64,000 nt of DNA, from NCBI GenBank assembly GCA_964016885.1, contig OZ024741.1:21824001-21888000 (forward strand), given 5' to 3'. Source of the DNA: Eledone cirrhosa. Lineage: Eukaryota. The notes below the pieces were generated by a model. That model was not told where the DNA came from. It saw only the letters and a program-made list of their open reading frames with translations, and did no database searches. Numbering within the stretch: the stretch's first letter is position 1; each line of letters starts with the position of its first letter. Made by a program: the position numbers and the translations under genes. Below are positions 20,994-62,526 of this stretch, piece after piece.

Positions 20994-21018
20994 AGCATAT
21001 AAACAATATGCCCCCCCC

Positions 21019-26025: not shown

Positions 26026-26120
26026 TATGTGAGCAAGACAACCACTCTTGCCTCAAGTGGGAAAACCCCCGTCCAAACCCATGCAAGCGTGGAACACGGA
26101 CGCTAAACCTGATGATGATG

Positions 26121-29003: not shown

Positions 29004-29274
29004 ATGTTAAATTTGATTCTCACCCGTTCGTGGACAGTAAAACGAAAAGCTTCAGTCCAGCACTGGGGCGGATTCTTCCTCTATATCTCTTTCACACTCC
29101 CTCTACCACACACAGCCTTCTCTTCTCTGGAAGAAATCAGGTGGAGAGGGGATTGTCACCACCTGGCTTAATAATTGTTTCTACTTTTGGCACAAGGCCA
29201 GCAATTACCTCAGTACTTTACTGGTACTTTATTTTATCGACCCCGTAATGATGAAAGGCAAAGTTAACCTCGGC

Positions 29275-29287
29275 GGGATTTGAACTC
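29275..29287 (-). promoter_or_regulatory. Pol III B box of the SINE
   Basis: GAGTTCAAATCCC matches GTTCRANYC. Confidence 0.8.
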
Positions 29288-29319
29288 AGACCCTAAAGGG
29301 CCATACCTCTTTGCTGCAA

Positions 29320-32300
29320 AGCATGGTGTCCAACTCTCTACCGAGACTGCCAATCCACCGCCCTTGAAAACCATGGTGTCTGACCCTCTATCGATATTGC
29401 CAATCCACCACCCTAGAATGGTGTCAGACCCTCTACCGATACTGTCAATCCACCACCCTTACAAAGCATGGTGTCCGACCCTCTACTGATACTGCCAATC
29501 CACCACCCTTACAAAGCATTGTGTCCGACCCTCTACCGATACATCCAATCCACAACCCTTACATAGCATGGTGTCCGACACTCTACTGATACTGCCAATC
29601 CACCACCCTTACAAAGCATTGTGTCCGACCCTCTACCGATACTGCCAATTCACCGCCCTTGAAAAGCAAGGTGTCCGACCCTCTACCGATACTGCCAATC
29701 CACCACCCTTACAAAGCATAGTGTCCGACCCTCTACCGATACTGCCAATCCACCACCCTTACAAAGCATGGTGTCTGACCCTCTAACGATACTGCCAATC
29801 CACCACCCTTACAAAGCATGTTGTCCGACCCTCTACCGAGACTGCCAATCCACCACCCTTCAAAAGCATGGTGTCCGACCCTCTACCGATACTGCCAATC
29901 CACCACCCTTACAAAGCATGGTGTCCGACCCTCTACCGAGACTGCCAATCCACCACCCTTACAAAGCGTTGTGTCCGACCCTCTACCGATACTGCCAATT
30001 AACCACCCTTACAAAGCATGGTCTCCGACCCTCTACCGAGACTGCCAATCCACCACCCTTATAAAGCATGGTGTCCGACCCTCTACCGATACTGCCAATC
30101 AACCACCCTTACAAAGCATGGTGTCCGACCCTCTACCGATACTGCCAATCCACCGCCCTAGCAATGGTGTCTGACCCTCTACCGAGACTGCCAATACAAA
30201 GTCCTTACAAAGCATAGTGTCCGACCCTCTACCAAGACTGCCAATCCACCACCCTAGCATGGTTTCCGACCCTCTACCGGTACTGCCAATCCACCACCAT
30301 AACATGGTGTCTGACCCTCTACCGATACTGCCAATCCACCACCATAGCATGGTGTCTGACCCTCTACCGATACTGCCAATCCACCACCCTAGCATGGTGT
30401 CTGACCCTCTACCGAGACTGCCAATCTGCCACCCTAGCATGGTGTCTGACCCTCTACCGATACTGCCAATCTGCCACCGTAGCATGGTGTCTGACCTTCT
30501 ACCGAGACTGCCAATCCAACACCCTAGCATGGTGTCTGACCCTCTACCGAGACTGCGAATCCACCAACCTAAAATGGTGTCCGACGCTCTACCGATACTG
30601 CCATTCCACCGCTCTTACAAAGCATGGTGTCCGACCCTCTACCGATACTACCAATCCACCGCCCTAGCATGGTGTCGGACTCTCTACCGATATTGCCAAT
30701 CCACCAACCTAGCATGGTGTCTGACCTTCTACTGAGATTGCCAATCTGCCACCCTAGCATGGTGTCCGACCCTCTACCGATACTACCAATCCACCACCCT
30801 TACATGGTGTCCGACCCTCTACCGATACTGCCAATCCACCACCCTAGCATGGTGTCCGCGCTCTACCGATACTCCCAATCTACCACCCTAGCATGGTGTA
30901 CGACGCTCTACCGATACTGCCAATCCACCACCCTTACAAAGCATGGTGTCCGACCCTCTACCGAGACTGCCAATCCACTACCCTAGCATGGTGTCCGACC
31001 CTCTACCGATACTGCCAATCCACCGCCCTTACAAAACATAGTGTCCGACCCTCTACCGATACTGCCAATCCACCACCCTAGCATGGTGTCCGACCCTCTA
31101 CCGAGACTGCCAATCCACCACCCTAGCATGGTTTCCGACCCTCTACCGATACTGCGAATCCACCACCCTAAAATGGTGTCCGACGCTCTACCGATACTGC
31201 CAATCCACCGCTCTTACAAAGCATGGTGTCCGACCCTCTACCGAGACTGCCAATACACCAACCTTACAAAGCATGGTGTCCGACCCTCTACCGATACTGC
31301 CAATCCACCACCCTAGCATGGTGTCTGTCCCTCTACTGAGATTGCCAATCTGCCACCCTAGCATGGTGTCTGACGCTCTACTGAGACTGCCAATCCAACA
31401 CCCTGGCATGGTGTCCGACCCACTACCGAGACTGCCAATCCAACACCCTGGCATGGTGTCCGACCCTCTACCGAGACTGCCAATCCACCACCCTGGCATG
31501 GTGTCTGACCCTCTACCGAGACTGCCAATCTGCCACCCTAGCATCGTGTCCGACCCTCTACCGATACTGCCAATCTGCCACCGTAGCATGGTGTCTGACC
31601 TTCTACCGAGACTGCTAATCCACCACCATAGCATGGTGTCTGACCCTCTACCAAGACTGCCAATCCACCGCCCTAGCATGGTCTCTGAATCTCGACCGAT
31701 ATTGCCAATCCACCACCCAAGCATGGTGTCTGACCTTCTACTGAGATTGCAAATCTGCCACCCTAGCATGGTGTCCGACCCTCTACCGAGACTGTCAATC
31801 CAACACCCTGGCATGGTGTCCGGCCCTCTATCGAGACTGCCAATCCAACACCCTGGCATGGTTGATGACCCTCTACCGAGACTGCCAAGCCACCACCATA
31901 GCATGGTGCCGACCCTCTACCGATACTACCAATCCACCACCCTAACATGGTGTCCGACCCTCTACCGATACTGCCAATCCACCGCCCTTACAAAGCATGG
32001 TGTCCGACCCTCTACCTACGGATACTGCCAATGCACCGCCCTTACAAAGCATGGTGTCCGACCCTCTACTGAGACTGCCAATCCACCACTCTTACAAAGC
32101 AGGGTGTCCGACCCTCTACTGAGACTGCCAATCCACCACCCTTACAAAGCATGGTGTCCGACCCTCTACCTACCGATACTGCCAATCCACCGCCCTTACA
32201 AATCATGGTGTCCGACCCTCTACTGAGACTGCCAATCCACCACTCTTACAAAGCAGGGTGTCCGACCCTCTACTGAGACTGCCAATCCACCACCCTTACA

Positions 32301-35300
32301 AAGCATTGTGTCCGACCCTCTACCTACCGATACTGCCAATCCACCGCCCTTACAAATCATGGTGTCCGACCCTCTACTGAGACTGCCAATCCACCACCCT
32401 TACAAAGCATGGTGTCCGACCCTCTACCTACCGATACTGCCAATCCACCGCCCTTACAAATCATGGTGTCCGACCCTCTACTGAGCCTGCCAATCCACCA
32501 CTCTTACAAAGCAGGGTGTCCGACCCTCTACTGAGACTGCCAATCCACCGCCCTTACAAAGCATGGTGTCCGACCCTCTACCGATACTGCCAATCCACCA
32601 CTCTTACAAAGCATGGTGTCCGACCCTCTATTGTGACTGCCAATCCACCACCCTTACAAAGCATGGTGTCCGACCCTCTACTGAGACTGCCAATCCACCA
32701 CCCTTAGAAAGCATGGTGTCCGACCCTCTACCGATACTACCAATCTGCCACCCTAGCATGGTGTCCGACCCTCTACCGAGACTGCCAATCCACCACCCTA
32801 GCATGGTGTGCGACCCTCTACCGAGACTGCCAATCCACCACCATAGCATGGTGTCCGACCCTCTACCGAGACTGCCAATCCACCTCCCTAACATGGTGTC
32901 CGACCCTCTAACGACACTACCAATCCAACACCCTAGCATGGTGTCCGAACCTCTACCGAGACTGCTAATCCCCCACCCTGCATGGTGTCCGTCACTCTAC
33001 CGAGACTGCCAATCCAGCACCCTAACATGGTGTCCGATCCTCTACCGAGACTGCCAATCCAACACCCTAACATGGTGTCCGACCCTCTACCGAGACTGCC
33101 AATCCAACACCCTATCATGGTGTCCGACCCTCTACCGATACTGCCAATCCACCACCCTAGCATAGTGTCCGATCCTCTCACGATACTGCCAATCCACCTC
33201 CCTAGCATTGTGTCAGACCCTCTACCTACACTGCCAATCCACCGCCCTAGCACGGTGTCCGACCCTCTACCTACCTATACTGCCAATCCACCACCCTAGC
33301 ATGGTGTCCAAGCCTCTACAGATACTGCCAATCCACCACCCTAGCATGGTGTCCCACCCTCTACCGATACTGCCAATCCCAAACCCTAGCATGGTGTCCC
33401 ACCCCCTACCGAGACTGCCAATCCACCACCCTAGCATGGTGTCCCACCCTCTACCAAGACTGCCAATCCACCACCCTAGCATGGTGTCCCACCCTCTACC
33501 GAGACTGCCAATCCACCACCCTAGCATGGTGTCCGACCCTCTACCGATACAGCCAATCTACCACTCTAGCATGGTGTACGACCCTCTACCAATACTGCCA
33601 ATCCACCACCCTTACAAAGCATGGTGTCCGACCCTCTACAGAGACTGCCAATCCACCACCCTAGCATGGTGTTCGACCCTCTACCGAGACTGCCAATCCA
33701 CCACCCTAGCATGGTGTTCGACCCTCTACCGAGACTGCCAATCTACCACCCTTGCAAAGCATGGTGTACGACCCTCTACCGATACTGCCAATCCACCGCC
33801 CTTACAAAGCATAGTGTCCGACCCCCTACCGATACTGCCAATCCACCACCCTTACAAAGCATGGTGTCCGACCCTCTACCGATACTACCAATCTGCCACC
33901 CTAGCATGGTGTCCGACCGTCTACCGAGACTGCCAATCCACCACCCTAGCATGGTGTCCGACCCTCTACCGAGACTGCCAATCCACCACCCTAGCATGGT
34001 GTCCCACCCTCTACCAACACTGCCAATCCACCACCCTAGTATGGTGTCCCACCCTCTACCAAGACTGTCAATCCACCACCCTAGCATGGTGTCCCACCCT
34101 CTACCGAGACTGCCAATCCACCACCCTAGCATGGTGTCCGACCCTCTACCGATACAGCCAATCTACCAGCCTAGCATGGTGTCCGACCCTCTACCGATAC
34201 AGCCAATCTACCACCCTAGTATGGTGTCCGACCCTCTACCGAGACTGCCAATACACCAACCTTACAAAGCATGGTGTCCGACCCTCTACCGATACTGCCA
34301 ATCCACCAGCCTAGTATGGTGTCCGACCCTCTACCGAGACTGTCAATCCACCACCCTTGCAAAGCAGGGTGTCTGACCCTCTACCGAGACTGCCAATCTA
34401 CCGCCCTTAAAAAGCATGGTGTCCGACCCTTACCGATACTGCCAATCCACCACCCTTACAAAGCATGGTGTTCGCCCCTCTACTGAGACTGCCAATCCGC
34501 CACCCTTACAAAGCATGGTGTCCGACCCTCTACGGATACTGCCAATCCACCGCCCTTACAAAGCATGGTGTCCGACCCTCTAACAATACTGCCAATCCAC
34601 CACCCTGTTATGGTGTCCGTCCCTCTACCGAGACAGCCAATCCAGCCCCTAACATGGTGTCCGACCCTCTACCGAGACTGCCAATCCACCACCCTAGCAT
34701 GGTGTCCGACCCTCTACCGATACTGCCAATCCACCACCCTAGCATGGTGTCCGACCCTCTACCTACACTGCCAATCCACCGCCCTAGCATGGTGTCCGAC
34801 CCTCTACCGATACTACTAATCCACCGCCCTAGCATGGTGTCCGACCCTCTACCGATACTGCCAATCCACCACCCTAGCATTTTGTCGCACCCTCTACCGA
34901 TACTGCCAATCCACTACCCTAGCATGGTGTCCTACCCTCTACCGAGACTGCCAATCCACCACCCTAGCATGGTGTCCCACCATCTACCAAGTCTGCCAAT
35001 CCACCACCCGAGCATGGTGTCCGACCCTCTACCTACCGATACTGCCAATCCACCACCTTAGCAAGGTGTCCCACCCTCTACCGATACTGCCAATCCACCA
35101 CCCTAGTATGGTGTCCCACCCTCTACCGATACTGCCAATCCACCACCCTAGCATGGTGTCCCACCCTCTACCGATACTGCCAATCCAACACCCTAGGATG
35201 GTGTCCGACCCTCTACCGAGACTGCCAATCCACCACCCTAACATGGTGTTCGACCCTCTACTGAGACTGCCAATCCACCACTCTGACAAAGCATGGTGTC

Positions 35301-38300
35301 CGACCCTCTACCGATACTGCCAATCCACCACCCTTACAAAGCATGGTGTCCGACCCTCTACTGAGACTGCCAATCCACCACTCTTACAAAGCATGGTGTC
35401 CGACCCTCTACCGATACTGCCAATCCACCGCCCTTACAAAGCATAGTGTCCCACCCTCTACCGAGACAGCCAATCTACCACCGTAGCATAGTGTACGACC
35501 CTCTACCGATACTGCCAATCCACCACCCTTACAAAGCATGGTGTCCGACCCTCTACCAAGACTGCCAATCCACCACCCTAGCATGGTGTTCGACCCTCTA
35601 CCGAGACTGCCAATCTACCACCCTTGCAAAGCATGGTGTCTGACCCTCTAGCGAGACTGCCAATCTACCGACCTTACAAAGCATGGTGTCCGACCCTCTA
35701 CCGATACATCCAATCCACCACACTAGAGTGGTGTTCGACCCTCTACTGAGACTGCCAATCTACCACCCTTGCAAAGCATGGTGTACGACCCTCTACCGAT
35801 ACTGCCAATCCACCACCCTAGTATGGCGTCCCACCCTCTACCAAGACTGCCAATCCACCACCCTACCATGGTGTCCCACCCTCTACCGTGACTGCCAATC
35901 CACCACCCTAGCATGGTGTACGACCCTCTACAGATACTGCCAATCCACCACCCTTACAAAGCATGGTGTCCGACCCTCTACCGATATTGCCAATCCCCCA
36001 CCCTAGCATGGTGTTCGACCTTCTACCGAGACTGCCAATCTACCACCCTTGCAAAGCATGGTGTCTGACCCTCTACCGAGACTGCTAATCTACCGCCCTT
36101 ACAAAGCATGGTGTCCGACCCTCTACCTACCGATACTGCCAATCGACCACCCTTACAAAGGATGGTGTCCGACCCTCTACAGATACTGTCAATCCACTAC
36201 CCTTACAAAGCATGGTGTCCGACCCTCTACCGATACTGCCAATCCACCACCCTTACAAAGCATGGTGTTCGACCCTCTACCGATACTGCCAATCCACCAC
36301 CCTTACAAAGCATGGTGTCCGACCCTCTACCGATACTGCCAATCCACCACCCTAGCATGGTGTTCGACCCTCTACCGAGACTGCCAATCTACCGACCTTA
36401 CAAAGAAGGGTGTCTGACCCTCTACCGAGACTGCCAATCTACCACCCTTACAAAGCATGGTGTCTGACCCTCTACCTACCGATACTGCCAATCCACCGCC
36501 CTTACAAAGCATGGTGTCCGACCCTCTACTGAGACTGCCAATCCACCACTCTTACAAAGCATGGTGTCCAACCCTCTACCGATACTGCCAATCCACCACC
36601 CTTACAAAGCATGGTGTCCGACTCTCTACCGAGACTGCCAATCCACCACCCTTACAAAGCATGGTGTCCGACCCTCTACCGATACTGCCAATCCACCACC
36701 CTTACAAAGCATGGTGTTCGACCCTCTACCGAGACTGCCAATCCACCACCCTTACAAAGCATGGTGTCCGACCCTCTACCGATACTGCCAATCCACCGCC
36801 CTTACAAAGCATGGTGTCCGACCCTCTAACGATGCTGCCAATACAACACCCTAGCATGGTGTCCGACCCTCTACCGACACTGCCAATCCACCACCCGAGC
36901 ATGGTGTCCGACACTCTACCGAGACTGCCAATCCAACACCCTAACATGGTGTCCGATCCTCTACCTAGACTGCCAATCCAAAACCCTAACATGGTGTCCG
37001 AGCCTCTACTGAGACTGCCAATCCACCACCCTAGCATGGTGTCCGACCCTCTACCGATACTGCCAATCCACCACCCTAGCATAGTGTCCGACCCTCTACC
37101 GATACTGCCAATCCACCACCCTAGCATGGTGTCCGACCCTCTACCTACACTGCCAATCCACCGCCCTAGCATGGTGTCCGACCATCTGCCGATACTGCCA
37201 ATCCACCCCCTAGCATGGTGTCCGACCCTCTACCGAGACTGCCAATCCACCACCCTAGCATGGTGTCCGACCCTCTACCGATACAGCCAATCTACCACCC
37301 TAGCATGGTGTACGACCCTCTACCGATACTGCCAATCCACCACCCTTACAAAGCATGGTGTACAACCCTCTACCGAGACTGTCAATCCACCACCCTTGCA
37401 AAGCAGGGTGTCTGACCCTCTACCGATACTGCCAATCCACCACCCTTACAAAGCATGGTGTCTGACCCTCTACCGAGACTGCCAATCTACCGACCTTACA
37501 AAGCATGGTGTCCGACCCTCTACTGATACATCCAATCCACCACCCTAGTATGGTGTCTGACCCTCTACCGATACATCCAATCCATCACCCTAGTATGGTG
37601 CCCGACCCTCTACTGAGACTGCCAATTCACCGCCCTTACAAAGCATAGTGTCCGACCCTCTACCGATACTGCCAATCCACCACCCTAGCATGGTGCCCGA
37701 CCCTCTACCGAGACTGCCAATACACCAACCTTACAAAGCATGGTGTCCGACCCTCTACCGAGACTGTCAATCCACCACCCTTGCAAAGCAGGGTGTCTGA
37801 CCCTCTACCGAGACTGCCAATCTACCGCCCTTACAAAGCATGGTGTCCGACCCTCTACCTACCGATACTGCCAATCGACCACCCTTACAAAGCAGGGTGT
37901 CCGACCCTCTATAGATACTGCCAATCCACCACCCTTACAAAGCATGGTGTCCGACCCTCTACCGATACTGCCAATCTACCACCCTTACAAAGCATGGTGT
38001 CTGACCCTCTACCGAGACTGCCAATCCACCACCGTAGCATGGTGTCCGACCCTCTACCGAGACTGCCAATCCACCACCCTAGCAGGGTTTCCGACCCTCT
38101 ACCGATACTGCGAATCCACCACCCTAAAATGGTGTCCGACCCTCTACTGATACTGCCAATCCACCGCTCTTACAAAGCATGGTGTCCGACCCTCTACCGA
38201 GACTGCCAATACACCAACCTTACAAAGCATGGTGTCCGACCCTCTACCGATACTGCCAATCCACCACCCTAGCATGGTGTCTGACCCTCTACTGAGATTG

Positions 38301-41300
38301 CCAATCTGCCACCCTAGCATGGTGTCTGACGCTCTACTGAGACTGCCAATCCAACACCCTGGCATGGTGTCCGACCCTCTACCGAGACTGCCAATCCAAC
38401 ACCCTGGCATGGTGTCCGACCCTCTACCGAGACTGCCAATCCACCACCCTGGCATGGTGTCTGACCCTCTACCGAGACTGCCAATCTGCCACCCTAGCAT
38501 CGTGTCCGACCCTCTACCGATACTGCCAATCTGCCACCGTAGCATGGTGTCTGACCTTCTACCGAGACTGCCAATCCACCACCCTAGCATGGTGTCCGAC
38601 CCACTACCAAGACTGCCAATCCACCGCCCTAGCATGGTCTCTGAATCTCTACCGATATTGCCAATCCACCACCCAAGCATGGTGTCTGACCTTCTACTGA
38701 GATTGCCAATCTGCCACCCTAGCGTGGTGTCCGACCCTCTACCGAGACTGCCAATCCAACACCCTGGCATGGTGTCCGACCCTCTACCGAGACTGCCAAT
38801 CCAACACCCTGGCATGGTTGATGACCCTCTACCGAGACTGCCAAGCCACCACCCTAGCATGGTGCCGACCCTCTACCGATACTACCAATCCACCACCCTA
38901 ACATGGTGTCCGACCCTCTACCGATACTGCCAATCCACCGCCCTTACAAAGCATGGTGTTCGACCCTCTACCTACCGATACTGCCAATCCACCGCCCTTA
39001 CAAAGCATGGTGTCCGACCCTCTACTGAGACTGCCAATCCACCACTCTTACAAAGCAGGGTGTCCGACCCTCTACTGAGACTGCCAATCCACCACCCTTA
39101 CAAAGCATTGTGTCCAACCCTCTACCTACCGATACTGCTAATCCACCGCCCTTACAAAGCATGGTGTTCGACCCTCTACCGATACTGCCAATCCACCACT
39201 CTTACAAAGCATGGTGTCCGACCCTCTACTGAGACTGCCAATCCACCACCCTTACAAAGCATGGTGTCCGACCCTCTACTGAGACTGCCAATCCACCACC
39301 CTTACAAAGCATGGTGTCCGACCCTCTACCGATACTACCAATCTGCCACCCTAGCATGGTGTGCGACCCTCTACCGAGACTGCCAATCCACCACCATAGC
39401 ATGGTGTCCGACCCTCTACCGAGACTGCCAATCCACCTCCCTAACATGGTGTCCGACCCTCTGACGACACTGCCAATCCACCACCCTGGCATGGTGTCCG
39501 ACACTCTACCGAGACTGCCAATCCAGCACCCTAACATGGTGTCCGATCCTCTACCGAGACTGCCAATCCAACACCCTAACATGGTGTCCGACCCTCTACC
39601 GAGACTGCCAATCCGCCACCCTAGCATGGTGTCCGACCCTCTACCGATACTGCCAATCCACCACCCTAGCATAGTGTCCGATCCTCTCACGATACTGCCA
39701 ATCCACCTCCCTAGCATTGTGTCAGACCCTCTACCTACACTGCCAATCCACCGCCCTAGCATGGTGTCCGACCATCTACCTACCGATACTGCCAATCCAT
39801 CGCCCTAGCATGGTGTCCGACCCTCTACAGATACTGCCAATCCACCACCCTAGCATGGTGTCCCACCTTCTACCGATACTGCCAATCCAAACCCTAGCAT
39901 GGTGTCCCACCCTCTACCGAGACTACCAATCCACCACCCTAGCATGGTGTCCCACCCTCTACCAAGACTGCCAATCCACCACCCTAGCATGGTGTCCCAC
40001 CCTCTACCGAGACTGCCAATCCACCACCCTAGCATGGTGTCCGACCCTCTACCGATACAGCCAATCTACCACCCTAGCATGGTGTACGACCCTCTACCGA
40101 TACTGCCAATCCACCACCCTTACAAAGCATGGTGTCCGACCCTCTACCGAGACTGCCAATCCACCACCCTTGCAAAGCATGGTGTCCGACCCTCTACCGA
40201 TACTATCAATCTGCCACCCTAGCATGGTGTCCAACCGTCTACCGAGACTGCCAATCCACCACCCTAGCATGGTGTCCGACCCTCTACCGAGACTGCCAAT
40301 CCACCACCCTAGCATGGTGTCCCACCCTCTGCCAACACTGCCAATCCACCACCCTAGTATGGTGTCCCACCCTCTACCAAGACTGCCAATCCACCACCCT
40401 AGCATGGTGTCCCACCCTCTACCGAGACTGCCAATCCACCACCCTAGCATGGTGTCCGACCCTCTACCGATACAGCCAATCTACCACCCTAGCATGGTGT
40501 CCGACCCTCTACCGATACAGCCAATCTACCACCCTAGTATGGTGTCCGACCCTCTACCGAGACTGCCAATACACCAACCTTACAAAGCATGGTGTCCGAC
40601 CCTCTACCGATACTGCCAATCCACCACCCTAGTATGGTGTCCGACCCTCTACCGAGACTGTCAATCCACCACCCTTGCAAAGCAGGGTGTCTGACCCTCT
40701 ACCGAGACTGCCAATCTACCGCCCTTAAAAAGCATGGTGTCTGACCCTTACCGAGACTGCCAATCCAGCACCCTTACAAAGCATGGTGTCCGACCCTCTA
40801 CCGATACTGCCAATCCACCACCCTGTTATGGTGTCCGACCCTCTACCGAGACTGCCAATCCAGCACCCTAACATGGTGTCCGACCCTCTACCGAGACTGC
40901 CAATCCACCACCCTAGCATGGTGTCCGACCCTCTACCGATACTGCCAATCCACCACCCTAGCATGGTGTCCGACCCTCTACCTACACTGCCAATCCACCG
41001 CCCTAGCATGGTGTCCGACCCTCTACCGATACTGCCAATCCACCACCCTAGCGTGGTGTCCGACCCTCTACCGATACTGCCAATCCACCACCCTAGCATG
41101 GTGTCCCACCCTCTACCGATACTGCCAATCCACTACCCTAGCATGGTGTCCCACCCTCTACCGAGACTGCCAATCCACCACCCTAGCATGGTGTCCCACC
41201 CTCTAGCAAGTCTGCCAATCCACCACCCTAGCATGGTGTCCGACCCTCTACCTACCGATACTGCCAATCCACCACCTTAGCATGGTGTCCCACCCTCTAC

Positions 41301-47300: not shown

Positions 47301-50300
47301 GTGTTCGACCCTCTACCGAGACTGCCAATCTACCACCCTTGCAAAGCATGGTGTCTGACCCTCTACCGAGACTGCCAATCTACCGACCTTACAAAGCATA
47401 GTGTCCGACCCTCTACCGATACTGCCAATCTACCAACCTTGCAAAGCATGGTGTCTGACCCTCTACCGAGACTGCCAATCTACCGACCTTACAAAGCATG
47501 GTGTCCGACCCTCTACCGTTACATCCAATCCACCACACTAGAGTGGTGTTCGACCCTCTACCGAGACTGCCAATCTACCACCCTTGCAAAGCATGGTGTA
47601 CGACCCTCTACCGATACTGCCAATCCACCGCCCTTACAAAGCATAGTGTCCGACCCTCTACCGATACTGCCAATCCACCACCCTAGTATGGCGTCCCACC
47701 CTCTACCAAGACTGCGAATCCACCACCCTAGCATGGTGTCCCACCCTCTACCGTGACTGCCAATCCACCACCCTAGCATGGTGTGCGACCCTCTACCGAT
47801 ACTGCCAATCCACCACCCTTACAAAGCATGGTGTCTGACCCTCTACCGATACTGCCAATCCCCCACCCTAGCATGGTGTTCGACCCTCTACCGAGACTGC
47901 CAATCTACTACCCTTGCAAAGCATGGTGTCTGACCCTCTACCGAGACTGCTAATCTACCGCCCTTACAAAGCATGGTGTCCGACCCTCTACCTACCGATA
48001 CTGCCAATCGACCACCCGTGCAAAGCATGGTGTCTGACCCTCTACCGAGACTGCCAATCTACCGACCTTACGAAGCAGGGTGTCTGACCCTCTACCGAGA
48101 CTGCCAATCTACCGCCCTTACAAAGCATGGTGTCCAACCCTCTACCGATACTGCCAATCCACCACCCTTACAAAGCATGTTGTTCGACCCTCTACCGAGA
48201 CTGCCAATCCACCACCCTAGCATGGTGTCCGACCCTCTACCGATACAGCCAATCTACCACCCTAGCATGGTGTACGACCCTCTACCGATACTGCCAATCC
48301 ACCACCCTTACAAAGCATGGTGTCCGACCCTCTACCGAGACTGCCAATCCACCACCCTTGCAAAGCATGGTGTCCGACCCTCTACCGATACTATCAATCT
48401 GCCACCCTAGCATGGTGTCCAACCGTCTACCGAGACTGCCAATCCACCACCCTAGCATGGTGTCCGACCCTCTACCGAGACTGCCAATCCACCACCCTAG
48501 CATGGTGTCCCACCCTCTGCCAACACTGCCAATCCACCACCCTAGTATGGTGTCCCACCCTCTACCAAGACTGCCAATCCACCACCCTAGCATGGTGTCC
48601 CACCCTCTACCGAGACTGCCAATCCACCACCCTAGCATGGTGTCCGACCCTCTACCGATACAGCCAATCTACCACCCTAGCATGGTGTCCGACCCTCTAC
48701 CGATACAGCCAATCTACCACCCTAGTATGGTGTCCGACCCTCTACCGAGACTGCCAATACACCAACCTTACAAAGCATGGTGTCCGACCCTCTACCGATA
48801 CTGCCAATCCACCACCCTAGTATGGTGTCCGACCCTCTACCGAGACTGTCAATCCACCACCCTTGCAAAGCAGGGTGTCTGACCCTCTACCGAGACTGCC
48901 AATCTACCGCCCTTAAAAAGCATGGTGTCTGACCCTTACCGAGACTGCCAATCCAGCACCCTTACAAAGCATGGTGTCCGACCCTCTACCGATACTGCCA
49001 ATCCACCACCCTGTTATGGTGTCCGACCCTCTACCGAGACTGCCAATCCAGCACCCTAACATGGTGTCCGACCCTCTACCGAGACTGCCAATCCACCACC
49101 CTAGCATGGTGTCCGACCCTCTACCGATACTGCCAATCCACCACCCTAGCATGGTGTCCGACCCTCTACCTACACTGCCAATCCACCGCCCTAGCATGGT
49201 GTCCGACCCTCTACCGATACTGCCAATCCACCACCCTAGCATGGTGTCCGACCCTCTACTGATACTGCCAATCCACCACCCTAGCATGGTGTCCCACCCT
49301 CTACCGATACTGCCAATCCACTACCCTAGCATGGTGTCCCACCCTCTACCGAGACTGCCAATCCACCACCCTAGCATGGTGTCCCACCCTCTAGCAAGTC
49401 TGCCAATCCACCACCCTAGCATGGTGTCCGACCCTCTACCTACCGATACTGCCAATCCACCACCTTAGCATGGTGTCCCACCCTCTACCGATACTGCCAA
49501 TCCACCACCCTAGTATGGTGTCCCACCCTCTACCGATACTGCCAATCCACCACCCTAGCATGGTGTCCCACCCTCTACCGATACTGCCAATCCAACACCC
49601 TAGGATGGTGTCCGACCCTCTACCGAGACTGCCAATCCACCACCCTAACATGGTGTCCGACCCGCTACTGAGACTGCCAATCCACCACTCTTACAAAGCA
49701 TGGTGTCCGACCCTCTACCGATACTGCCAATCCACCACCCTTACAAAGCATGGTGTCCGACCCTCTACTGAGACTGCCAATCCACCACTCTTACAAAGCA
49801 TGGTGTCTGACCCTCTACCGATACTGCCAATCCACCGCCCTTACAAAGCATAGTGTCCCACCCTCTACCGAGACTGACAATCCACCACCCTAGCATGGTG
49901 TCCGACCCTCTACCGATACAGCCAATCTACCACCGTAGCATAGTGTACGACCCTCTACCGATACTGCCAATCCACCACCCTTACAAAGCATGGTGTCCGA
50001 CCCTCTACCGAGACTGCCAATCCACCACCCTAGCATGGTGTTCGACCCTCTACCGAGACTGCCAATCTACCACCCTTGCAAAGCATGGTGTCTGACCCTC
50101 TACCGAGACTGCCAATCTACCGACCTTACAAAGCATAGTGTCCGACCCTCTACCGATACTGCCAATCTACCAACCTTGCAAAGCATGGTGTCTGACCCTC
50201 TACCGAGACTGCCAATCTACCGACCTTACAAAGCATGGTGTCCGACCCTCTACCGTTACATCCAATCCACCACACTAGAGTGGTGTTCGACCCTCTACCG

Positions 50301-53300
50301 AGACTGCCAATCTACCACCCTTGCAAAGCATGGTGTACGACCCTCTACCGATACTGCCAATCCACCGCCCTTACAAAGCATAGTGTCCGACCCTCTACCG
50401 ATACTGCCAATCCACCACCCTAGTATGGCGTCCCACCCTCTACCAAGACTGCGAATCCACCACCCTAGCATGGTGTCCCACCCTCTACCGTGACTGCCAA
50501 TCCACCACCCTAGCATGGTGTGCGACCCTCTACCGATACTGCCAATCCACCACCCTTACAAAGCATGGTGTCTGACCCTCTACCGATACTGCCAATCCCC
50601 CACCCTAGCATGGTGTTCGACCCTCTACCGAGACTGCCAATCTACTACCCTTGCAAAGCATGGTGTCTGACCCTCTACCGAGACTGCTAATCTACCGCCC
50701 TTACAAAGCATGGTGTCCGACCCTCTACCTACCGATACTGCCAATCGACCACCCGTGCAAAGCATGGTGTCTGACCCTCTACCGAGACTGCCAATCTACC
50801 GACCTTACGAAGCAGGGTGTCTGACCCTCTACCGAGACTGCCAATCTACCGCCCTTACAAAGCATGGTGTCCAACCCTCTACCGATACTGCCAATCCACC
50901 ACCCTTACAAAGCATGTTGTTCGACCCTCTACCGAGACTGCCAATCCACCACCCTTACAAAGCATGGTGTCCGACCCTCTACCGATACTGCCAATCCACC
51001 GCACTTACAAAGCATGGTGTCCGACCCTCTACCGATACTGCCAATCCACCACCCTTACAAAGCATGGTGTCCGACCCTCTACCGAGACTGCCAATCCACT
51101 ACCCTTACAAAGCATGGTGTCCGACCCTCTACCAATACTACCAATCTGCCACCCTAGCATGGTGTCCGACCGTCTACCGAGACTGCCAATCCACCACCCT
51201 AGCATGGTGTCCGACCCTCTACCGAGACTGCCAATCCACCACCCTAGCATGGTGTCCCACCCTCTGCCAACACTGCCAATCCACCACCCTAGTATGGTGT
51301 CCCACCCTCTACCAAGACTGCCAATCCACCACCCTAGCATGGTGTCCCACCCTCTACCGAGACTGCCAATCCACCACCCTAGCATGGTGTCCGACCCTCT
51401 ACCGATACAGCCAATCTACCACCCTAGCATGGTGTCCGACCCTCTACTGATACAGCCAATCTACCACCCTAGTATGGTGTCCGACCCTCTACCGAGACTG
51501 CCAATACACCAATCTTACAAAGCATGGTGTCTGACCCTCTACCGATACTGCCAATCCACCACCCTAGTATGGTGTCCGACCCTCTATCGAGACTGTCAAT
51601 CCACCACCCTTGCAAAGCAGGGTGTCTGACCCTCTACCGATACTGCCAATCTACCGCCCTTAAAAAGCATGGTGTCTGACCCTTACCGAGACTGCCAATC
51701 CAGCACCCTTACAAAGCATGGTGTCCGACCCTCTACCGATACTGCCAATCCACCGCCCTTACAAAGCATGGTGTCCGACCCTCTAACGATACTGCCAATC
51801 CACCACCCTTACAAAGCATGGTGTCCGACCCTCTAACGATACTGCCAATCCACCGCCCTTACAAAGCATTGTGTCCGACCCTCTACCGAGACTGCCAATC
51901 CAGCACCCTAACATGGTGTCCGACCCTCTACCGAGACTGCCAATCCACCACCCTAGCATGGTGTCCGACCCTCTACCGATACTGCCAATCCACCACCCTA
52001 GCATGGTGTCCGACCCTCTACCTACACTGCCAATCCACCGCCCTAGCATGGTGTCCGACCCTCTACCGATACTGCCAATCCACCGCCCTAGCATGGTGTC
52101 CGACCCTCTACCGATACTGCCAATCCACCACCCTAGCATGGTGTCCCACCCTCTACCGATACTGCCAATCCACTACCCTAGCATGGTGTCCCACCCTCTA
52201 CCGAGACTGCCAATCCACCACCCTAGCATGGTGTCCCACCCTCTACCAAGTTTGCCAATCCACCACCCTAGCATGGTGTCCGACCCTCTACCTACCGATA
52301 CTGCCAATCCACCACCTTAGCATGGTGTCCCACCCTCTACCGATACTGCCAATCCACCACCCTAGTATGGTGTCCCACCCTCTACCGATACTGCCAATCC
52401 ACCACCCTAGCATGGTGTCCCACCCTCTACCGATACTGCCAATCCAACACCCTAGGATGGTGTCCGACCCTCTACCGAGACTGCCAATCCACCACCCTAA
52501 CATGGTGTCCGACCCTCTACTGAGACTGCCAATCCACAACTCTTACAAAGCATGGTGTCTGACCCTCTACCGATACTGCCAATCCACCACCCTTACAAAG
52601 CATGGTATCCGACCCTCTACTGAGACTGCCAATCCACCACTCTTACAAAGCATGGTGTCCGACCCTCTACCGATACTGCCAATCCACCGCCCTTACAAAG
52701 CATAGTGTCCCACCCTCTACCGAGATTGCCAATCCACCACCCTAGCATGGTGTCCGACCCTCTACCGATATAGCCAATCTACCACCGTAGCATAGTGTAC
52801 GACCCTCTACCGATACTGCCAATCCACCACCCTTACAAAGCATGGTGTCCGACCCTCTACCGAGACTGCCAATCCACCACCCTAGCATGGTGTTCGACCC
52901 TCTACCGAGACTGCCAATCTACCACCCTTGCAAAGCATGGTGTCTGACCCTCTACCGAGACTGCTAATCTACCGCCCTTACAAAGCATGGTGTCCGACCC
53001 TCTACCTACCGATACTGCCAATCGACCACCCGTGCAAAGCATGGTGTCTGACCCTCTACCGAGACTGCCAATCTACCGACCTTACGAAGCAGGGTGTCTG
53101 ACCCTCTACCGAGACTGCCAATCTACCGCCCTTACAAAGCATGGTGTCCAACCCTCTACCGATACTGCCAATCCACCACCCTTACAAAGCATGTTGTTCG
53201 ACCCTCTACCGAGACTGCCAATCCACCACCCTTACAAAGCATGGTGTCCGACCCTCTACCGATACTGCCAATCCACCGCCCTTACAAAGCATGGTGTCCG

Positions 53301-56300
53301 ACCCTCTACCGATACTGCCAATCCACCACCCTTACAAAGCATGGTGTCCGACCCTCTACCGAGACTGCCAATCCACCACCCTTACAAAGCATGGTGTCCG
53401 ACCCTCTACCAATACTACCAATCTGCCACCCTAGCATGGTGTCCGACCGTCTACCGAGACTGCCAATCCACCACCCTAGCATGGTGTCCGACCCTCTACC
53501 GAGACTGCCAATCCACCACCCTAGCATGGTGTCCCACCCTCTGCCAACACTGCCAATCCACCACCCTAGTATGGTGTCCCACCCTCTACCAAGACTGCCA
53601 ATCCACCACCCTAGCATGGTGTCCCACCCTCTACCGAGACTGCCAATCCACCACCCTAGCATGGTGTCCGACCCTCTACCGATACAGCCAATCTACCACC
53701 CTAGCATGGTGTCCGACCCTCTACCGATACAGCCAATCTACCACCCTAGTATGGTGTCCGACCCTCTACCGAGACTGCCAATACACCAACCTTACAAAGC
53801 ATGGTGTCCGACCCTCTACCGATACTGCCAATCCACCACCCTAGTATGGTGTCCGACCCTCTATCGAGACTGTCAATCCACCACCCTTTCAAAGCAGGGT
53901 GTCTGACCCTCTACCGATACTGCCAATCTACCGCCCTTAAAAAGCATGGTGTCTGACCCTTACCGAGACTGCCAATCCAGCACCCTTACAAAGCATGGTG
54001 TCCGACCCTCTACCGATACTGCCAATCCACCGCCCTTACAAAGCATGGTGTCCGACCCTCTAACGATACTGCCAATCCACCACCCTTACAAAGCATGGTG
54101 TCCGACCCTCTAACGATACTGCCAATCCACCGCCCTTACAAAGCATGGTGTCCGACCCTCTACCGAGACTGCCAATCCAGCACCCTAACATGGTGTCCGA
54201 CCCTCTACCGAGACTGCCAATCCACCACCCTAGCATGGTGTCCGACCCTCTACCGATACTGCCAATCCACCACCCTAGAATGGTGTCCGACCCTCTACCT
54301 ACACTGCCAATCCACCGCCCTAGCATGGTGTCCGACCCTCTACCGATACTGCCAATCCACCGCCCTAGCATGGTGTCCGACCCTCTACCGATACTGCCAA
54401 TCCACCACCCTAGCATGGTGTCCCACCCTCTACCGATACTGCCAATCCACTACCCTAGCATGGTGTCCCACCCTCTACCGAGACTGCCAATCCACCACCC
54501 TAGCATGGTGTCCCACCCTCTACCAAGTTTGCCAATCCACCACCCTAGCATGGTGTCCGACCCTCTACCTACCGATACTGCCAATCCACCACCTTAGCAT
54601 GGTGTCCCACCCTCTACCGATACTGCCAATCCACCACCCTAGTATGGTGTCCCACCCTCTACCGATACTGCCAATCCACCACCCTAGCATGGTGTCCCAC
54701 CCTCTACCGATACTGCCAATCCAACACCCTAGGATGGTGTCCGACCCTCTACCGAGACTGCCAATCCACCACCCTAACATGGTGTCCGACCCTCTACTGA
54801 GACTGCCAATCCACAACTCTTACAAAGCATGGTGTCCGACCCTCTACCGATACTGCCAATCCACCACCCTTACAAAGCATGGTATCCGACCCCCTACTGA
54901 GACTGCCAATCCACCACTCTTACAAAGCATGGTGTCCGACCCTCTACCGATACTGCCAATCCACCGCCCTTACAAAGCATAGTGTCCCACCCTCTACCGA
55001 GACTGCCAATCCACCACCCTAGCATGGTGTCCGACCCTCTACCGATATAGCCAATCTACCACCGTAGCATAGTGTACGACCCTCTACCGAGACTGCCAAT
55101 CCACCACCCTAGCATGGTGTTCGACCCTCTACCGAGACTGCCAATCTACCACCCTTGCAAAGCATGGTGTCTGACCCTCTACCGAGACTGCCAATCTACC
55201 GACCTTACAAAGCATAGTGTCCGACCCTCTACCGATACTGCCAATCTACCACCCTTGCAAAGCATGGTGTCTGACCCTCTACCGAGACTGCCAATCTACC
55301 GACCTTACAAAGCATGGTGTCCGACCCTCTACCGTTACATCCAATCCACCACACTAGAGTGGTGTTCGACCCTCTACCGAGACTGCCAATCTACCACCCT
55401 TGCAAAGCATGGTGTACGACCCTCTACCGATACTGCCAATCCACCGCCCTTACAAAGCATAGTGTCCGACCCTCTACCGATACTGCCAATCCACCACCCT
55501 AGTATGGCGTCCCACCCTCTACCAAGAATGCGAATCCACCACCCTAGCATGGTGTCCCACCCTCTACCGTGACTGCCAATCCACCACCCTAGCATGGTGT
55601 ACGACCCTCTACCGATACTGCCAATCCACCACCCTTACAAAGCATGGTGTCCGACCCTCTACCGATACTGCCAATCCCCCACCCTAGCATGGTGTTCGAC
55701 CCTCTACCGAGACTGCCAATCTACCACACATGCAAAGCATGGTGTCTGACCCTCTACCGAGACTGCTAATCTACCGCCCTTACAAAGCATGGTGTCCGAC
55801 CCTCTACCTACCGATACTGCCAATCGACCACCCGTGCAAAGCATGGTGTCTGACCCTCTACCGAGACTGCCAATCTACCGACCTTACGAAGCAGGGTGTC
55901 TGACCCTCTACCGAGACTGCCAATCTACCGCCCTTACAAAGCATGGTGTCCAACCCTCTACCGATACTGCCAATCCACCACCCTTACAAAGCATGTTGTT
56001 CGACCCTCTACCGAGACTGCCAATCCACCACCCTTACAAAGCATGGTGTCCGACCCTCTACCGATACTGCCAATCCACCGCCCTTACAAAGCATGGTGTC
56101 CGACCCTCTAACGATACTGCCAATACAACACCCTAGCATGGTGTCCGACCCTCTACCGACACTGCCAATCCACCACCCGAGCATGGTGTCCGACACTCTA
56201 CCGAGACTGCCAATCCACCACCCTAGCATGGTGTCCCACCCTCTACCGAGACTGCCAATCCAACACCCTAACATGGTGTCCGATCCTCTACCGAGACTGC

Positions 56301-59300
56301 CAATCCAACACCCTAACATGGTGTCCGATCCTCTACCGAGACTGCCAATCCAACACCCTAACATGGTGTCCGAGCCTCTACCGAGACTGCCAATCCACCA
56401 CCCTAGCATAGTGTCCGACCCTCTACCGATACTGCCAATCCACCACCCTAGCATGGTGTCCGACCCTCTACCTACACTGCCAATCCACCGCCCTAGCATG
56501 GTGTCCGACCCTCTACCGATACTGCCAATCCACCACCATAGCATGGTGTCCCACCCTCTACCGAGACTGCCAATCCACCACCCTAGCATGGTGTCCCACC
56601 CTCTACCGATACTGCCAATCCACCACCCTAGCATGGTGTCCGATCCTCTACCTACACTGCCAATCCACCGCCCTAGCATGGTGTCCGACCCTCTAGCGAT
56701 ACTGCCAATCCACCACCCTAGCATGGTGTCCCACCCTCTACCGATACTGCCAATCCACCAGCCTAGCATGGTGTCCCACCCTCTACCGATACTGCCAATC
56801 CACCACCCTAGCATGGTGTCCGACCCTCTACCTACACTGCCAATCCACCACCCTAGCATGGTGTCCGACCCTCTACCGATACAGCCAATCTACCACCCTA
56901 GCATGGTGTACGACCCTCTACCGATACTGCCAATCCACCGCCCTTACAAAGCATGGTGTCCGACCCTCTAACGATACTGCCAATCCACCACCCTTACAAA
57001 GCATGGTGTCCGACCCTCTAACGATACTGCCAATCCACCGCCCTTACAAAGCATGGTGTCCGACCCTCTACCGAGACTGCCAATCCAGCACCCTAACATG
57101 GTGTCCGACCCTCTACCGAGACTGCCAATCCACCACCCTAGCATGGTGTCCGACCCTCTACCGATACTGCCAATCCACCACCCTAGCATGGTGTCCGACC
57201 CTCTACCTACACTGCCAATCCACCGCCCTAGCATGGTGTCCGACCCTCTACCGATACTGCCAATCCACCGCCCTAGCATGGTGTCCGACCCTCTACCGAT
57301 ACTGCCAATCCACCACCCTAGCATGGTGTCCCACCCTCTACCGATACTGCCAATCCACTACCCTAGCATGGTGTCCCACCCTCTACCGAGACTGCCAATC
57401 CACCACCCTAGCATGGTGTCCCACCCTCTACCAAGTTTGCCAATCCACCACCCTAGCATGGTGTCCGACCCTCTACCTACCGATACTGCCAATCCACCAC
57501 CTTAGCATGGTGTCCCACCCTCTACCGATACTGCCAATCCACCACCCTAGTATGGTGTCCCACCCTCTACCGATACTGCCAATCCACCACCCTAGCATGG
57601 TGTCCCACCCTCTACCGATACTGCCAATCCAACACCCTAGGATGGTGTCCGACCCTCTACCGAGACTGCCAATCCACCACCCTAACATGGTGTCCGACCC
57701 TCTACTGAGACTGCCAATCCACAACTCTTACAAAGCATGGTGTCCGACCCTCTACCGATACTGCCAATCCACCACCCTTACAAAGCATGGTATCCGACCC
57801 CCTACTGAGACTGCCAATCCACCACTCTTACAAAGCATGGTGTCCGACCCTCTACCGATACTGCCAATCCACCGCCCTCACAAAGCATAGTGTCCCACCC
57901 TCTACCGAGACTGCCAATCCACCACCCTAGCATGGTGTCCGACCCTCTACCGATATAGCCAATCTACCACCGTAGCATAGTGTACGACCCTCTACCGAGA
58001 CTGCCAATCCACCACCCTAGCATGGTGTTCGACCCTCTACCGAGACTGCCAATCTACCACCCTTGCAAAGCATGGTGTCTGACCCTCTACCGAGACTGCC
58101 AATCTACCGACCTTACAAAGCATAGTGTCCGACCCTCTACCGATACTGCCAATCTACCACCCTTGCAAAGCATGGTGTCTGACCCTCTACCGAGACTGCC
58201 AATCTACCGACCTTACAAAGCATGGTGTCCGACCCTCTACCGTTACATCCAATCCACCACACTAGAGTGGTGTTCGACCCTCTACCGAGACTGCCAATCT
58301 ACCACCCTTGCAAAGCATGGTGTACGACCCTCTACCGATACTGCCAATCCACCGCCCTTACAAAGCATAGTGTCCGACCCTCTACCGATACTGCCAATCC
58401 ACCACCCTAGTATGGCGTCCCACCCTCTACCAAGAATGCGAATCCACCACCCTAGCATGGTGTCCCACCCTCTACCGTGACTGCCAATCCACCACCCTAG
58501 CATGGTGTACGACCCTCTACCGATACTGCCAATCCACCACCCTTACAAAGCATGGTGTCCGACCCTCTACCGATACTGCCAATCCCCCACCCTAGCATGG
58601 TGTTCGACCCTCTACCGAGACTGCCAATCTACCACACTTGCAAAGCATGGTGTCTGACCCTCTACCGAGACTGCTAATCTACCGCCCTTACAAAGCATGG
58701 TGTCCGACCCTCTACCTACCGATACTGCCAATCGACCACCCGTGCAAAGCATGGTGTCTGACCCTCTACCGAGACTGCCAATCTACCGACCTTACGAAGC
58801 AGGGTGTCTGACCCTCTACCGAGACTGCCAATCTACCGCCCTTACAAAGCATGGTGTCCAACCCTCTACCGATACTGCCAATCCACCACCCTTACAAAGC
58901 ATGTTGTTCGACCCTCTACCGAGACTGCCAATCCACCACCCTTACAAAGCATGGTGTCCGACCCTCTACCGATACTGCCAATACAACACCCTAGCATGGT
59001 GTCCGACCCTCTACCGACACTGCCAATCCACCACCCGAGCATGGTGTCCGACACTCTACCGAGACTGCCAATCCACCACCCTAGCATGGTGTCCCACCCT
59101 CTACCGAGACTGCCAATCCAACACCCTAACATGGTGTCCGATCCTCTACCGAGACTGCCAATCCAACACCCTAACATGGTGTCCGATCCTCTACCGAGAC
59201 TGCCAATCCAACACCCTAACATGGTGTCCGAGCCTCTACCGAGACTGCCAATCCACCACCCTAGCATAGTGTCCGACCCTCTACCGATACTGCCAATCCA

Positions 59301-62300
59301 CCACCCTAGCATGGTGTCCGACCCTCTACCTACACTGCCAATCCACCGCCCTAGCATGGTGTCCGACCCTCTACCGATACTGCCAATCCACCACCATAGC
59401 ATGGTGTCCCACCCTCTACCGAGACTGCCAATCCACCACCCTAGCATGGTGTCCCACCCTCTACCGATACTGCCAATCCACCACCCTAGCATGGTGTCCG
59501 ACCCTCTACCTACACTGCCAATCCACCGCCCTAGCATGGTGTCCGACCCTCTAGCGATACTGCCAATCCACCACCCTAGCATGGTGTCCCACCCTCTACC
59601 GATACTGCCAATCCACCACCCTAGCATGGTGTCCCACCCTCTACCGATACTGCCAATCCACCACCCTAGCATGGTGTCCGACCCTCTACCTACACTGCCA
59701 ATCCACCACCCTAGCATGGTGTCCGACCCTCTACCGATACAGCCAATCTACCACCCTAGCATGGTGTACGACCCTCTACCGATACTGCCAATCCACCACC
59801 CTTACAAAGCATGGTGTCTGACCCTCTACCGATACTGTCAATCCACCACCCTTGCAAAGCAGGGTGTCTGACCCTCTACCGATACTGCCAATCCACCACC
59901 CTAGCATGGTGTTCGACCCTCTACCGAGACTGCCAATCTACCACCCTTGCAAAGCATGGTGTCCGACCCTCTACCGAGACTGTCAATCCACCACCCTTGC
60001 AAAGCAGGGTGTCTGACCCTCTACCGATACTGCCAATCCACCACCCTAGCATGGTGTTCGACCCTCTACCGAGACTGCCAATCTACCACCCTTGCAAAGC
60101 ATGGTGTCCGACCCTCTACCGAGACTGTCAATCCACCACCCTTGCAAAGCAGGGTGTCTGACCCTCTACCGATACTGCCAATCCACCACCCTAGCATGGT
60201 GTACGACCCTCTACAGAGACTGCCAATCTACCACCCTTGCAAAGCATGGTGTCCGACCCTCTACCGAGACTGTCAATCCACCACCCTTGCAAAGCAGGGT
60301 GTCTGACCCTCTACCGATACTGCCAATCCACCACCCTAGCATGGTGTCCGACCCTCTACCGATACATCCAATCCACCACCCTAGTATGGTGTCCGACCCT
60401 CTACCTACCGATACTGCCAATCGACCACCCTTACAAAGCAGGGTGTCCGACCCTCTACAGATACTGCGAATCTACCACCCTTACAAAGCATGGTGTCTGA
60501 CCCTCTACCGATACTGCCAATCCACCACCCTTACAAAGCATGGTGTATGACCCTCTACCGAGACTGCCAATCTACCACCCTTACAAAGCATGGTGTCTGA
60601 CCCTCTACCGAGACTGCCAATCCACCACCCTTACAAAGCATGGTGTCTGACCCTCTACCGAGACTGCCAATCTACCACCCTTACAAAGCATGGTGTCCGA
60701 CCCTCTACCGATACTGCCAATCTACCACCCTTACAAAGCATGGTGTCCGACCCTCTACCGATACTGCCAATCTACCACCCTTACAAAGCATGGTGTCCGA
60801 CCCTCTACCGATACTGCCAATCTACCACCCTTACAAAGCATGGTGTCTGACCCTCTACCGATACTGCCAATCTACCACCCTTACAAAGCATGGTGTCCGA
60901 CCCTCTACCGATACTGCCAATCTACCACCCTTACAAAGCATGGTGTCCGACCCTCTACCGATACTGCCAATCTACCACCCTTACAAAGCATGGTGTCCGA
61001 CCCTCTACCGATACTGCCAATCTACCACCCTTACAAAGCATGGTGTCCGACCCTCTACCGATACTGCCAATCTACCACCCTTACAAAGCATGGTGTCCGA
61101 CCCTCTACCGATACTGCCAATCTACCACCCTTACAAAGCATGGTGTCCGACCCTCTACCGATACTGCCAATCTACCACCCTTACAAAGCATGGTGTCCGA
61201 CCCTCTACCGAGACTGCCAATCTACCACCCTTACAAAGCATGGTGTCCGACCCTCTACCGATACTGCCAATCTACCACCCTTACAAAGCATGGTGTCCGA
61301 CCCTCTACCGATACTGCCAATCTACCACCCTTACAAAGCATGGTGTCCGACCCTCTACCGATACTGCCAATCTACCACCCTTACAAAGCATGGTGTCCGA
61401 CCCTCTACCGATACTGCCAATCTACCACCCTTACAAAGCATGGTGTCCGACCCTCTACCGATACTGCCAATCTACCACCCTTACAAAGCATGGTGTCCGA
61501 CCCTCTACCGAGACTGCCAATCTACCACCCTTACAAAGCATGGTGTCCGACCCTCTACCGATACTGCCAATCTACCACCCTTACAAAGCATGGTGTCCGA
61601 CCCTCTACCGATACTGCCAATCTACCACCCTTACAAAGCATGGTGTCCGACCCTCTACCGATACTGCCAATCTACCACCCTTACAAAGCATGGTGTCCGA
61701 CCCTCTACCGATACTGCCAATCTACCACCCTTACAAAGCATGGTGTCCGACCCTCTACCGATACTGCCAATCTACCACCCTTACAAAGCATGGTGTCCGA
61801 CCCTCTACCGATACTGCCAATCTACCACCCTTACAAAGCATGGTGTCCGACCCTCTACCGATACTGCCAATCTACCACCCTTACAAAGCATGGTGTCCGA
61901 CCCTCTACCGATACTGCCAATCTACCACCCTTACAAAGCATGGTGTCCGACCCTCTACCGAGACTGCCTATCCACCACCCTGGCATGGTGTTCGACCCTC
62001 TACCGAGACTGCCAATCTACCGACCTTACAAAGCATGGTGTCCGACCCTCTACCGATACTGCCAATCCACCACCCTTACAAAGCATGGTGTCTGACCCTC
62101 TACCGAGACTGCCAATCTACCACCCTTACAAAGCATGGTGTCCGACCCTCTACCGATACTGCCAATCTACCACCCTTACAAAGCATGGTGTCCGACCCAC
62201 TACCGATACATCCAATCCACCACCCTAGCATGGTGTTCGACCCTCTACCAAGACTGCCAATCCACCACCCTAGCATGGTGTCCCACCCTCTACCAAGACT

Positions 62301-62526
62301 GACAATCCACCACCCTAGCATGGTGTCCGACCCTCTACCGAGACTGCCAATCCACCACCCTAGCATGGTGTCCCACCCTCTACCGAGACTGCCAATCCAC
62401 CACCCTAGCATGGTGTCCGACCCTCTACCTACACTGCCAATCCACCACCCTAGCATGGTGTCCCACCCTCTACCTGTACTATTAATCCACCACCCTAGCA
62501 TGGTGTCCCACCCTCTACCGAGACTG
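29320..62526 (-). repeat. Satellite B, mixed 45-bp/50-bp tandem repeat (~700 monomers) derived from the SINE 5' end
   Basis: + strand unit AGCATGGTGTCCGACCCTCTACCGAKACTGCCAATCCACCACCCT (45 bp) with or without TACAA (50 bp), plus occasional CTAC insertions. Minus strand equals the first ~45-50 nt of the adjoining SINE. Confidence 0.97.
29341..29352 (-). promoter_or_regulatory. Pol III A-box-like element of the SINE
   Basis: TGGCAGTCTCGG (TGGCAGTATCGG in many SatB units), ~12 nt from the SINE 5' end and ~53 nt upstream of the B box. Imperfect match to TRGCNNARYNNG. Confidence 0.6.

Follow-up and report, generated by a model that had tools for sequence, protein, structure and literature searches.

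A 33-kb cephalopod satellite built from the 5'-terminal 45-50 nt of a very common tRNA-like SINE, in phase with one damaged copy that is its likely founder

Minisatellites derived from Alu elements were reportedly described by Jurka and Gentles in 2006, with units that correspond approximately to the first 44 nt of Alu. Such minisatellites are cited in PMC6947457, PMC9659126 and PMC3389668, and the available text of the last of these has them start from short direct repeats in the flanks. Section 3.4 of PMC3389668, in the part available, reports 136 human cases in which a 5' partial Alu is repeated beside a full or nearly full Alu, with a mean unit of 88.6 bp; the start is proposed to be the endonuclease site that adjoins the Alu 5' end. 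In 56 squamate genomes, satellites derived from SINEs (sSat1-3) were described in PMC10702118. As far as the available sections of that paper go, their arrays contain up to 320, about 950 and more than 1,200 units, the unit measures 67-290 nt, and the terminal unit is extended to one SINE end in all major sSats, including families with thousands of loci; the authors left open the occurrence of sSats outside squamates. In molluscs, the available text of PMC11481361 describes tandem-like SINE structures of bivalves, whose units are SINE hits of at least 150 bp in 2-15 copies.

We searched the literature, with Repbase, Dfam and subscription papers outside the search, and found no report of an octopus SINE-derived satellite or of the array described below as SatB. 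The part of PMC13282606 consulted, which deals with repeats of O. vulgaris and 80 satellite families, contains no matching sequence, and our SINE family was not identified in the available portions of PMC4824008, PMC5786205 and PMC4758252. Pattern scans gave 0 matches in viral contigs and 0 in genome contigs.

The DNA analysed here (the window) is a stretch of 64,000 nucleotides, which carries two satellites, SatA and SatB, and one SINE copy attached to SatB. SatB consists of tandem copies of the 5'-terminal 45-50 nt of an abundant tRNA-like SINE, in phase with one damaged copy that is its likely founder, and it has likely grown by ordinary duplication at the DNA level, with no function. The window contains the following features.

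1..19252, plus strand: SatA, a 58-nt satellite that likely corresponds to about nt 40-97 (spacer and B box) in the head of a related SINE
26123..29003, plus strand: second stretch of SatA, which ends 166 nt from the SINE tail and is opposite in orientation to SatB
29169..29365, minus strand: attached SINE copy of 197 nt, without about 30 nt of the dispersed copies; diverse loose flanks in reads and contigs
29169..29206, minus strand: SINE 3' tail ending in ATTATT (29174-29169), with the deletion point at its 5' edge, 29206/29207
29222..29270, minus strand: conserved central domain, UCON3-type; it shares 32 of 40 nt with the SINE2-1_CrH row in the available Fig. S2 of PMC7245038, counted by eye
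29272..29362, minus strand: tRNA-like region, with a predicted GGCGG/CCGCC acceptor-type stem (nt 4-8 with 90-94)
29277..29285, minus strand: B box GTTCAAATC, SINE nt 81-89, outside the SatB unit; it fits the Pol III box consensus (29285-29277)
29316..29365, minus strand: nt 1-50 of the SINE (its head), doubling as the last satellite monomer; 45 of 49 positions carry the majority letter of the dispersed copies
29341..29352, minus strand: A-box-like motif, SINE nt 14-25, imperfect and present in every SatB monomer; we take it to be an A box by resemblance to the Pol III consensus
29366..31100, minus strand: SINE-proximal layer of SatB, mostly unique; nine of its first ten units are 50-mers
31101..59947, minus strand: interior of SatB, mixed 45- and 50-mers in recent multi-kb block duplications
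59948..62526, minus strand: distal layer of SatB, 77% 50-mers, cut mid-monomer by a microsatellite
62527..64000, plus strand: a (TG/TA)n microsatellite together with a LINE 5' part, in which one frame looks endonuclease-like from its motifs

An earlier reading made from the sequence only had proposed a 33-kb array of about 700 copies, and this is borne out. TRF placed SatB at 29319-62526 with 702.7 copies, and splitting at 698 anchors sorted most units into two lengths, 45 nt (384 units) and 50 nt (268 units); the other units measure 44-54 nt, plus five doubles of 99 nt. The mean pairwise identity of the units is 87%. Both main units start at the SINE 5' end (within 1 nt) and stop at nt 46 or 50/51, the 45-mer being SINE nt 2-46 and the 50-mer nt 1-50 (or 2-51), so that the 45-mer is the 50-mer minus 5 nt. 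The sequence shared at the unit junction does not exceed 1 nt.

The array is layered. In the SINE-proximal layer 93% and 80% of the units are unique and no near-exact long duplicate was found, the best 300-nt match being 77-94%. Unique monomers make up only 5-9% of the interior at 37-60 kb, where blocks recur at lags of 2,277-5,451 nt and the longest exact run reaches 2,769 nt. Window 45450-50955 contains a 2,769-nt segment duplicated exactly, at lag 2,737, which is either very recent or made by the assembler. Between 32093 and 60482 we also observed 19 units of 54 nt, with a 4-nt duplication at the junction, which mark the block duplications. The first monomer beside the SINE head (29366-29415) has G at unit position 45; this letter is rare in SatB (3 units, one of them an alignment artefact) and common in the 45-nt junction of another organism (organism B, below), and its presence here is a relic or chance.

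On the minus strand the last SatB monomer (29365-29316) continues in phase into a spacer, the B box, the central domain and ATTATT. This passage had been claimed to occur without a break, and the assembly sequence confirms it. The terminal unit is extended to one SINE end (29169-29365), as in the major sSats. Among the longest read and contig pieces listed, none spans the body, the head and the second monomer together, and the junction rests on the assembly. We found no second SINE body or head within the window outside the SatB array. The domains follow each other in the order tRNA-like head, conserved UCON3-type domain of about 50 nt, and tail. The taxa in Fig. S2 of PMC7245038, in the version available, include no mollusc, and the UCON3-type domain (29222-29270) is found here in this absent group. 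ARAGORN predicted 0 tRNA genes and Rfam gave no tRNA up to E 10, and the predicted acceptor-type stem is non-significant (z -0.73); from the two boxes and this predicted stem, we infer that the head may have originated from a tRNA.

Reads and contigs from public sequencing runs were aligned to 29010-29415 at 80% likeness, a cut that favours the nearest subfamily; the species labels of these runs may differ from the species of the window, and the flank 29010-29037 has depth 0 in three of the four runs. On 29169-29365 we observed a pile of 215,954 and 202,730 reads in two RAD runs, in which reads are site-biased, and of more than 150,000 contigs in each of the two others. Past both ends the copies run into unrelated flanks, with a loose-flank agreement of 0.37-0.47 at 29168-29171 and 29359-29365. 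This SINE family is very abundant and dispersed, with fixed ends, and the loose flanks show that the bounds given by the sequence-only reading, 29168-29363, were right within 2 nt. That reading was wrong in calling the attached copy one complete SINE: dispersed copies have about 30 extra nt at 29206/29207 (8,617 X15 reads with a loose end there, agreement 0.73), and these are missing from the attached copy. The missing segment (29206-29207) includes an apparent small hairpin. A/T-rich loose ends are seen in contigs at the SINE tail, and loose ends also reveal other spacer types among the dispersed copies. Four metagenome loci (L001:187-217, L002:601-631, L003:601-631 and L004:601-631) are SINEs of other animals, in which the core domain is the same but the head is not; L002 and L004 do not differ in the stretch shown. 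We rejected L001-L004 as evidence on the head, only the core domain being common.

For the head alone, 43,272 X17 reads were aligned to 29296-29368. The X17 majority letter differs from the attached head at four positions only, namely nt 39/29327 (66% of reads), nt 34/29332 (89%), nt 31/29335 (72%) and nt 21/29345 (98%). Over 49 positions the consensus of the SatB 50-mer agrees with the dispersed majority at 46 (94% alike). Of the three differences, two are CpG transitions, C to T at nt 6 and G to A at nt 39, and the third is the junction letter nt 50. At the two transition sites SatB has TpG/CpA where the dispersed copies retain CpG, which points from SINE to satellite. The derivation of the monomer from the SINE 5' head depended on what the dispersed 5' ends look like; they match the monomer and, together with the CpG states, support that derivation. 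The SatB monomer almost certainly comes from this SINE family.

The dispersed copies are single-headed in X17, where 18,409 reads enter diverse flanks (four listed 5' loose-end rows), and head-to-head joints amount to 14 + 6 = 20 reads. About 1,000 X15 reads across 29371 were considered as double heads and rejected, since a read with one head may also align to the second monomer, and only 20 joint reads appeared when the single-head stretch was used. Joints from 29364/29365 back to 29169 are not supported as direct SINE dimers, the letters between being unknown.

The other satellite, SatA, comprises 381 units found, of which 56 keep a SINE-type B box. Its consensus agrees with the SINE at the B box over 19 of 22 nt, the best of 60 shuffles reaching 17. 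Upstream of the B box, with the register fixed, 16 of 25 nt equal a loose-end motif of the SINE spacer in organism C (shuffle P 0.0005, the motif having been chosen after about six candidates); over the full 30 nt there are 7 transitions among 10 mismatches, and a second candidate motif gives 16/30. From these alignments a related head is the likely source of SatA, which would cover about nt 40-97, the spacer and B-box half missing from SatB; a tRNA gene or another SINE might also be its source. No SINE body is attached at the end of SatA that faces the SINE, and no parent copy is attached to SatA in the window.

SatA is interrupted by two 5'-truncated LINE copies (19260-21290 and 23804-26122) with (GAT)n tails. 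Their open reverse-transcriptase frames measure 585 aa and about 600 aa, a PHD-type domain occurs in relatives, and a protein search with the LINE gave animal-type reverse transcriptases at 48-69% identity. The 3' end of the second copy contains a 112-nt tandem duplication (25794-26025), and a G/T-rich stretch of about 0.9 kb lies between two (AT)n runs at 22760-23640. Between SatA and the SINE tail, 29038-29149 is a piece of another dispersed repeat, with a depth of up to about 4,000 in X15. The original 5' flank of the SINE has been replaced by the array, the microsatellite and the LINE, so that any target-site duplication would be hidden.

The attached copy had been called the progenitor of SatB and this locus its birth site. 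The average SatB monomer is at about 4.9/44 (11%, summed by hand) from the dispersed majority, the attached head at 4/44 and the attached spacer at 3/20; array and body therefore look about equally old. No more than two changes have come close to fixation among the monomers. The attached head has C at nt 21, a letter found in at most 2% of dispersed reads versus 46% of monomers, while 44% of monomers keep the ancestral A; and it is changed at positions 31 and 34, where the array retains the family state. In the simplest reading, C21 originated among the monomers and was passed to the terminal unit by exchange, and the attached head has apparently exchanged with the array. It shows 3-8 differences to the next 14 monomers and a mean of 5.1-6.8 to 50-monomer bins along the array, with its nearest matches at 36,653 and 42,103; its similarity to a monomer does not depend on how near that monomer lies, which leaves no ancestry gradient. 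At positions 6 and 39 the monomers near the SINE resemble it no more than the others do, and the distal edge of SatB is also rich in 50-mers.

In organism B, the 45-nt junction has a depth of 125,435 in 15 contigs, versus 12-26 for single SINE-bearing contigs, depth not being copy number; most of these junctions carry another letter at nt 45. Since the junction occurs there at high depth, the family is not confined to this assembly, and either the satellite family predates a species split or it occupies further loci, unless both hold. For the progenitor, the similar age and the unduplicated, 50-mer-rich layer on the SINE side agree with the claim, whereas the array-type C21 and the differing positions 31 and 34 of the head call for a qualification. 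The birth site is plausible, but it is not implied by the attachment: according to the available text of PMC10702118 an extended terminal unit is the rule in all major sSats, and attachment therefore marks no birth site. We lean slightly towards this locus being the place where SatB was born.

The head may have been duplicated at or soon after insertion, in a process anchored at the 5' insertion junction, either by a nick there, for which the start proposed for the human Alu cases of PMC3389668 is a precedent, or by a jump of the reverse transcriptase. The unit border at the exact end of the element points to the insertion junction as the start point, and with at most 1 nt shared at the unit junction a model based on short flanking repeats fits poorly. 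Slippage or unequal exchange would then add monomers, the two CpG transitions would spread and a 5-nt loss would give the 45-mer, before multi-kb block duplications enlarged the interior; the terminal monomer would continue to exchange with the array. Growth by slippage or unequal exchange, followed by block duplication, is suggested by the layers in the array. Because the SatB unit is devoid of a B box and lies upstream of the only B box, Pol III would not be expected to transcribe the array.

A hairpin predicted across the 50-mer junction reaches -6.3 kcal/mol, better than shuffles (1.3% of 300). The 45-mer junctions do not fold better than shuffles (33-40%), the array has a mean z of -1.2, and no compensatory pairs were seen. 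In the 50-mer hairpin, both near-fixed CpG changes would turn weak pairs into Watson-Crick pairs, with a mean of -4.6 kcal/mol for T6 versus -1.7 for C6, an effect noticed after the fact and absent from the 45-mers. On these folds the hairpin is a weak candidate for a cause of the unit borders.

Birth at this locus has to be weighed against other histories. SatB could have been born elsewhere from the same SINE family and joined to this body via ectopic recombination at the near-identical head. We consider such a secondary join unlikely, even though the very numerous dispersed heads share 94% of their letters with the monomer, the C21 of the attached head is the array-type state, the 45-nt junction is abundant in organism B and no ancestry gradient leads away from the SINE; body, head and monomers are about equally distant from the family majority, and on the SINE side the array ends in an unduplicated stretch of the longer unit, the one that resembles the SINE more. 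Alternatively, the array and the SINE body could have arisen jointly at another locus and reached this place as a single copied block, which appears improbable. The flank by the SINE tail (29150-29163) is covered by only about 6 (X15) and 2 (X16) reads versus about 150,000 at the core, a weak argument as RAD reads are site-biased; a block copy would be in keeping with the satellite-rich neighbourhood and with the squamate precedent, where, in the available text of PMC10702118, all major sSat families share the extended terminal unit and thousands of snake loci share both the unit and the terminal extension.

It is very improbable that a mobile subfamily of double-headed SINEs supplied ready-made seeds: organisms A, B and D do show head-to-head joints, but in X17 the 20 joint reads, which may stem from arrays, stand against 18,409 with diverse 5' flanks. 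Hardly any weight can be given to an unrelated satellite abutting a headless SINE, to a SINE head taken from the satellite or to an assembly join, although no listed read or contig piece spans the junction and the 2,769-nt exact duplication could be assembly-made. Against all three stand the 46/49 identity, the exact phase and the ancestral CpGs in the dispersed copies, and in the predicted fold the head pairs with the stem after the B box.

A wider proposal combines birth at this site with the seeding of SatA and SatB by complementary halves of the head of the same SINE family (about nt 40-97 and nt 1-50, respectively); it is tentative and, in our view, rather doubtful. If true, the SINE head would be a recurrent satellite seed in octopods, and the unit borders would be set by the 5' insertion junction together with the junction hairpin, both CpG changes of the array strengthening this hairpin. 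The parent family, the ancestral states and the unit borders of SatB can be read at single-base level. Orthologous loci, if found, would date the growth of the satellite from one insertion to 33 kb and test insertion junctions as seeds. The SatB data suggest no function.

SatB is a clean new example of the SINE-derived satellites already known from reptiles and humans, with a short unit that contains only the A box and with a probable sister satellite, SatA, from the other half of the head. It is a clear long case outside reptiles, in a cephalopod, and touches the question left open in the available text of PMC10702118. Like the squamate sSats, as described in that text, SatB has a unit that is part of a tRNA-related SINE, an extended terminal unit, hundreds of units and alternating subvariants; its approximately 700 units exceed the sSat minimum of four middle monomers. 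Its 45- and 50-nt units lie outside the reported 67-290 nt, which is a range and not a definition, and it differs further by using the A-box half only, by its invertebrate host and by its multi-kb block duplications. SatA, for its part, resembles the snake sSat3, whose 67-nt unit corresponds to nt 42-108 and includes the B box (PMC10702118, same sections). As in the Alu repeats of PMC3389668, in the part available, a 5' part is repeated beside an almost whole SINE, but those repeats have mostly two units and are 7SL-derived, whereas SatB has about 700 units and a tRNA-like head; and unlike the Alu minisatellites, for which the same text proposes a start from flanking repeats, SatB shares at most 1 nt at its junction. 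In its parent SINE the central domain follows a tRNA-like head, as in the UCON3-domain SINEs of the available PMC7245038 figure (32/40 nt to SINE2-1_CrH, by eye). With the bivalve structures, as the available text of PMC11481361 presents them, SatB has in common that SINE-based tandem arrays occur in a mollusc, and it differs from them by its 45/50-nt units and its approximately 700 copies.
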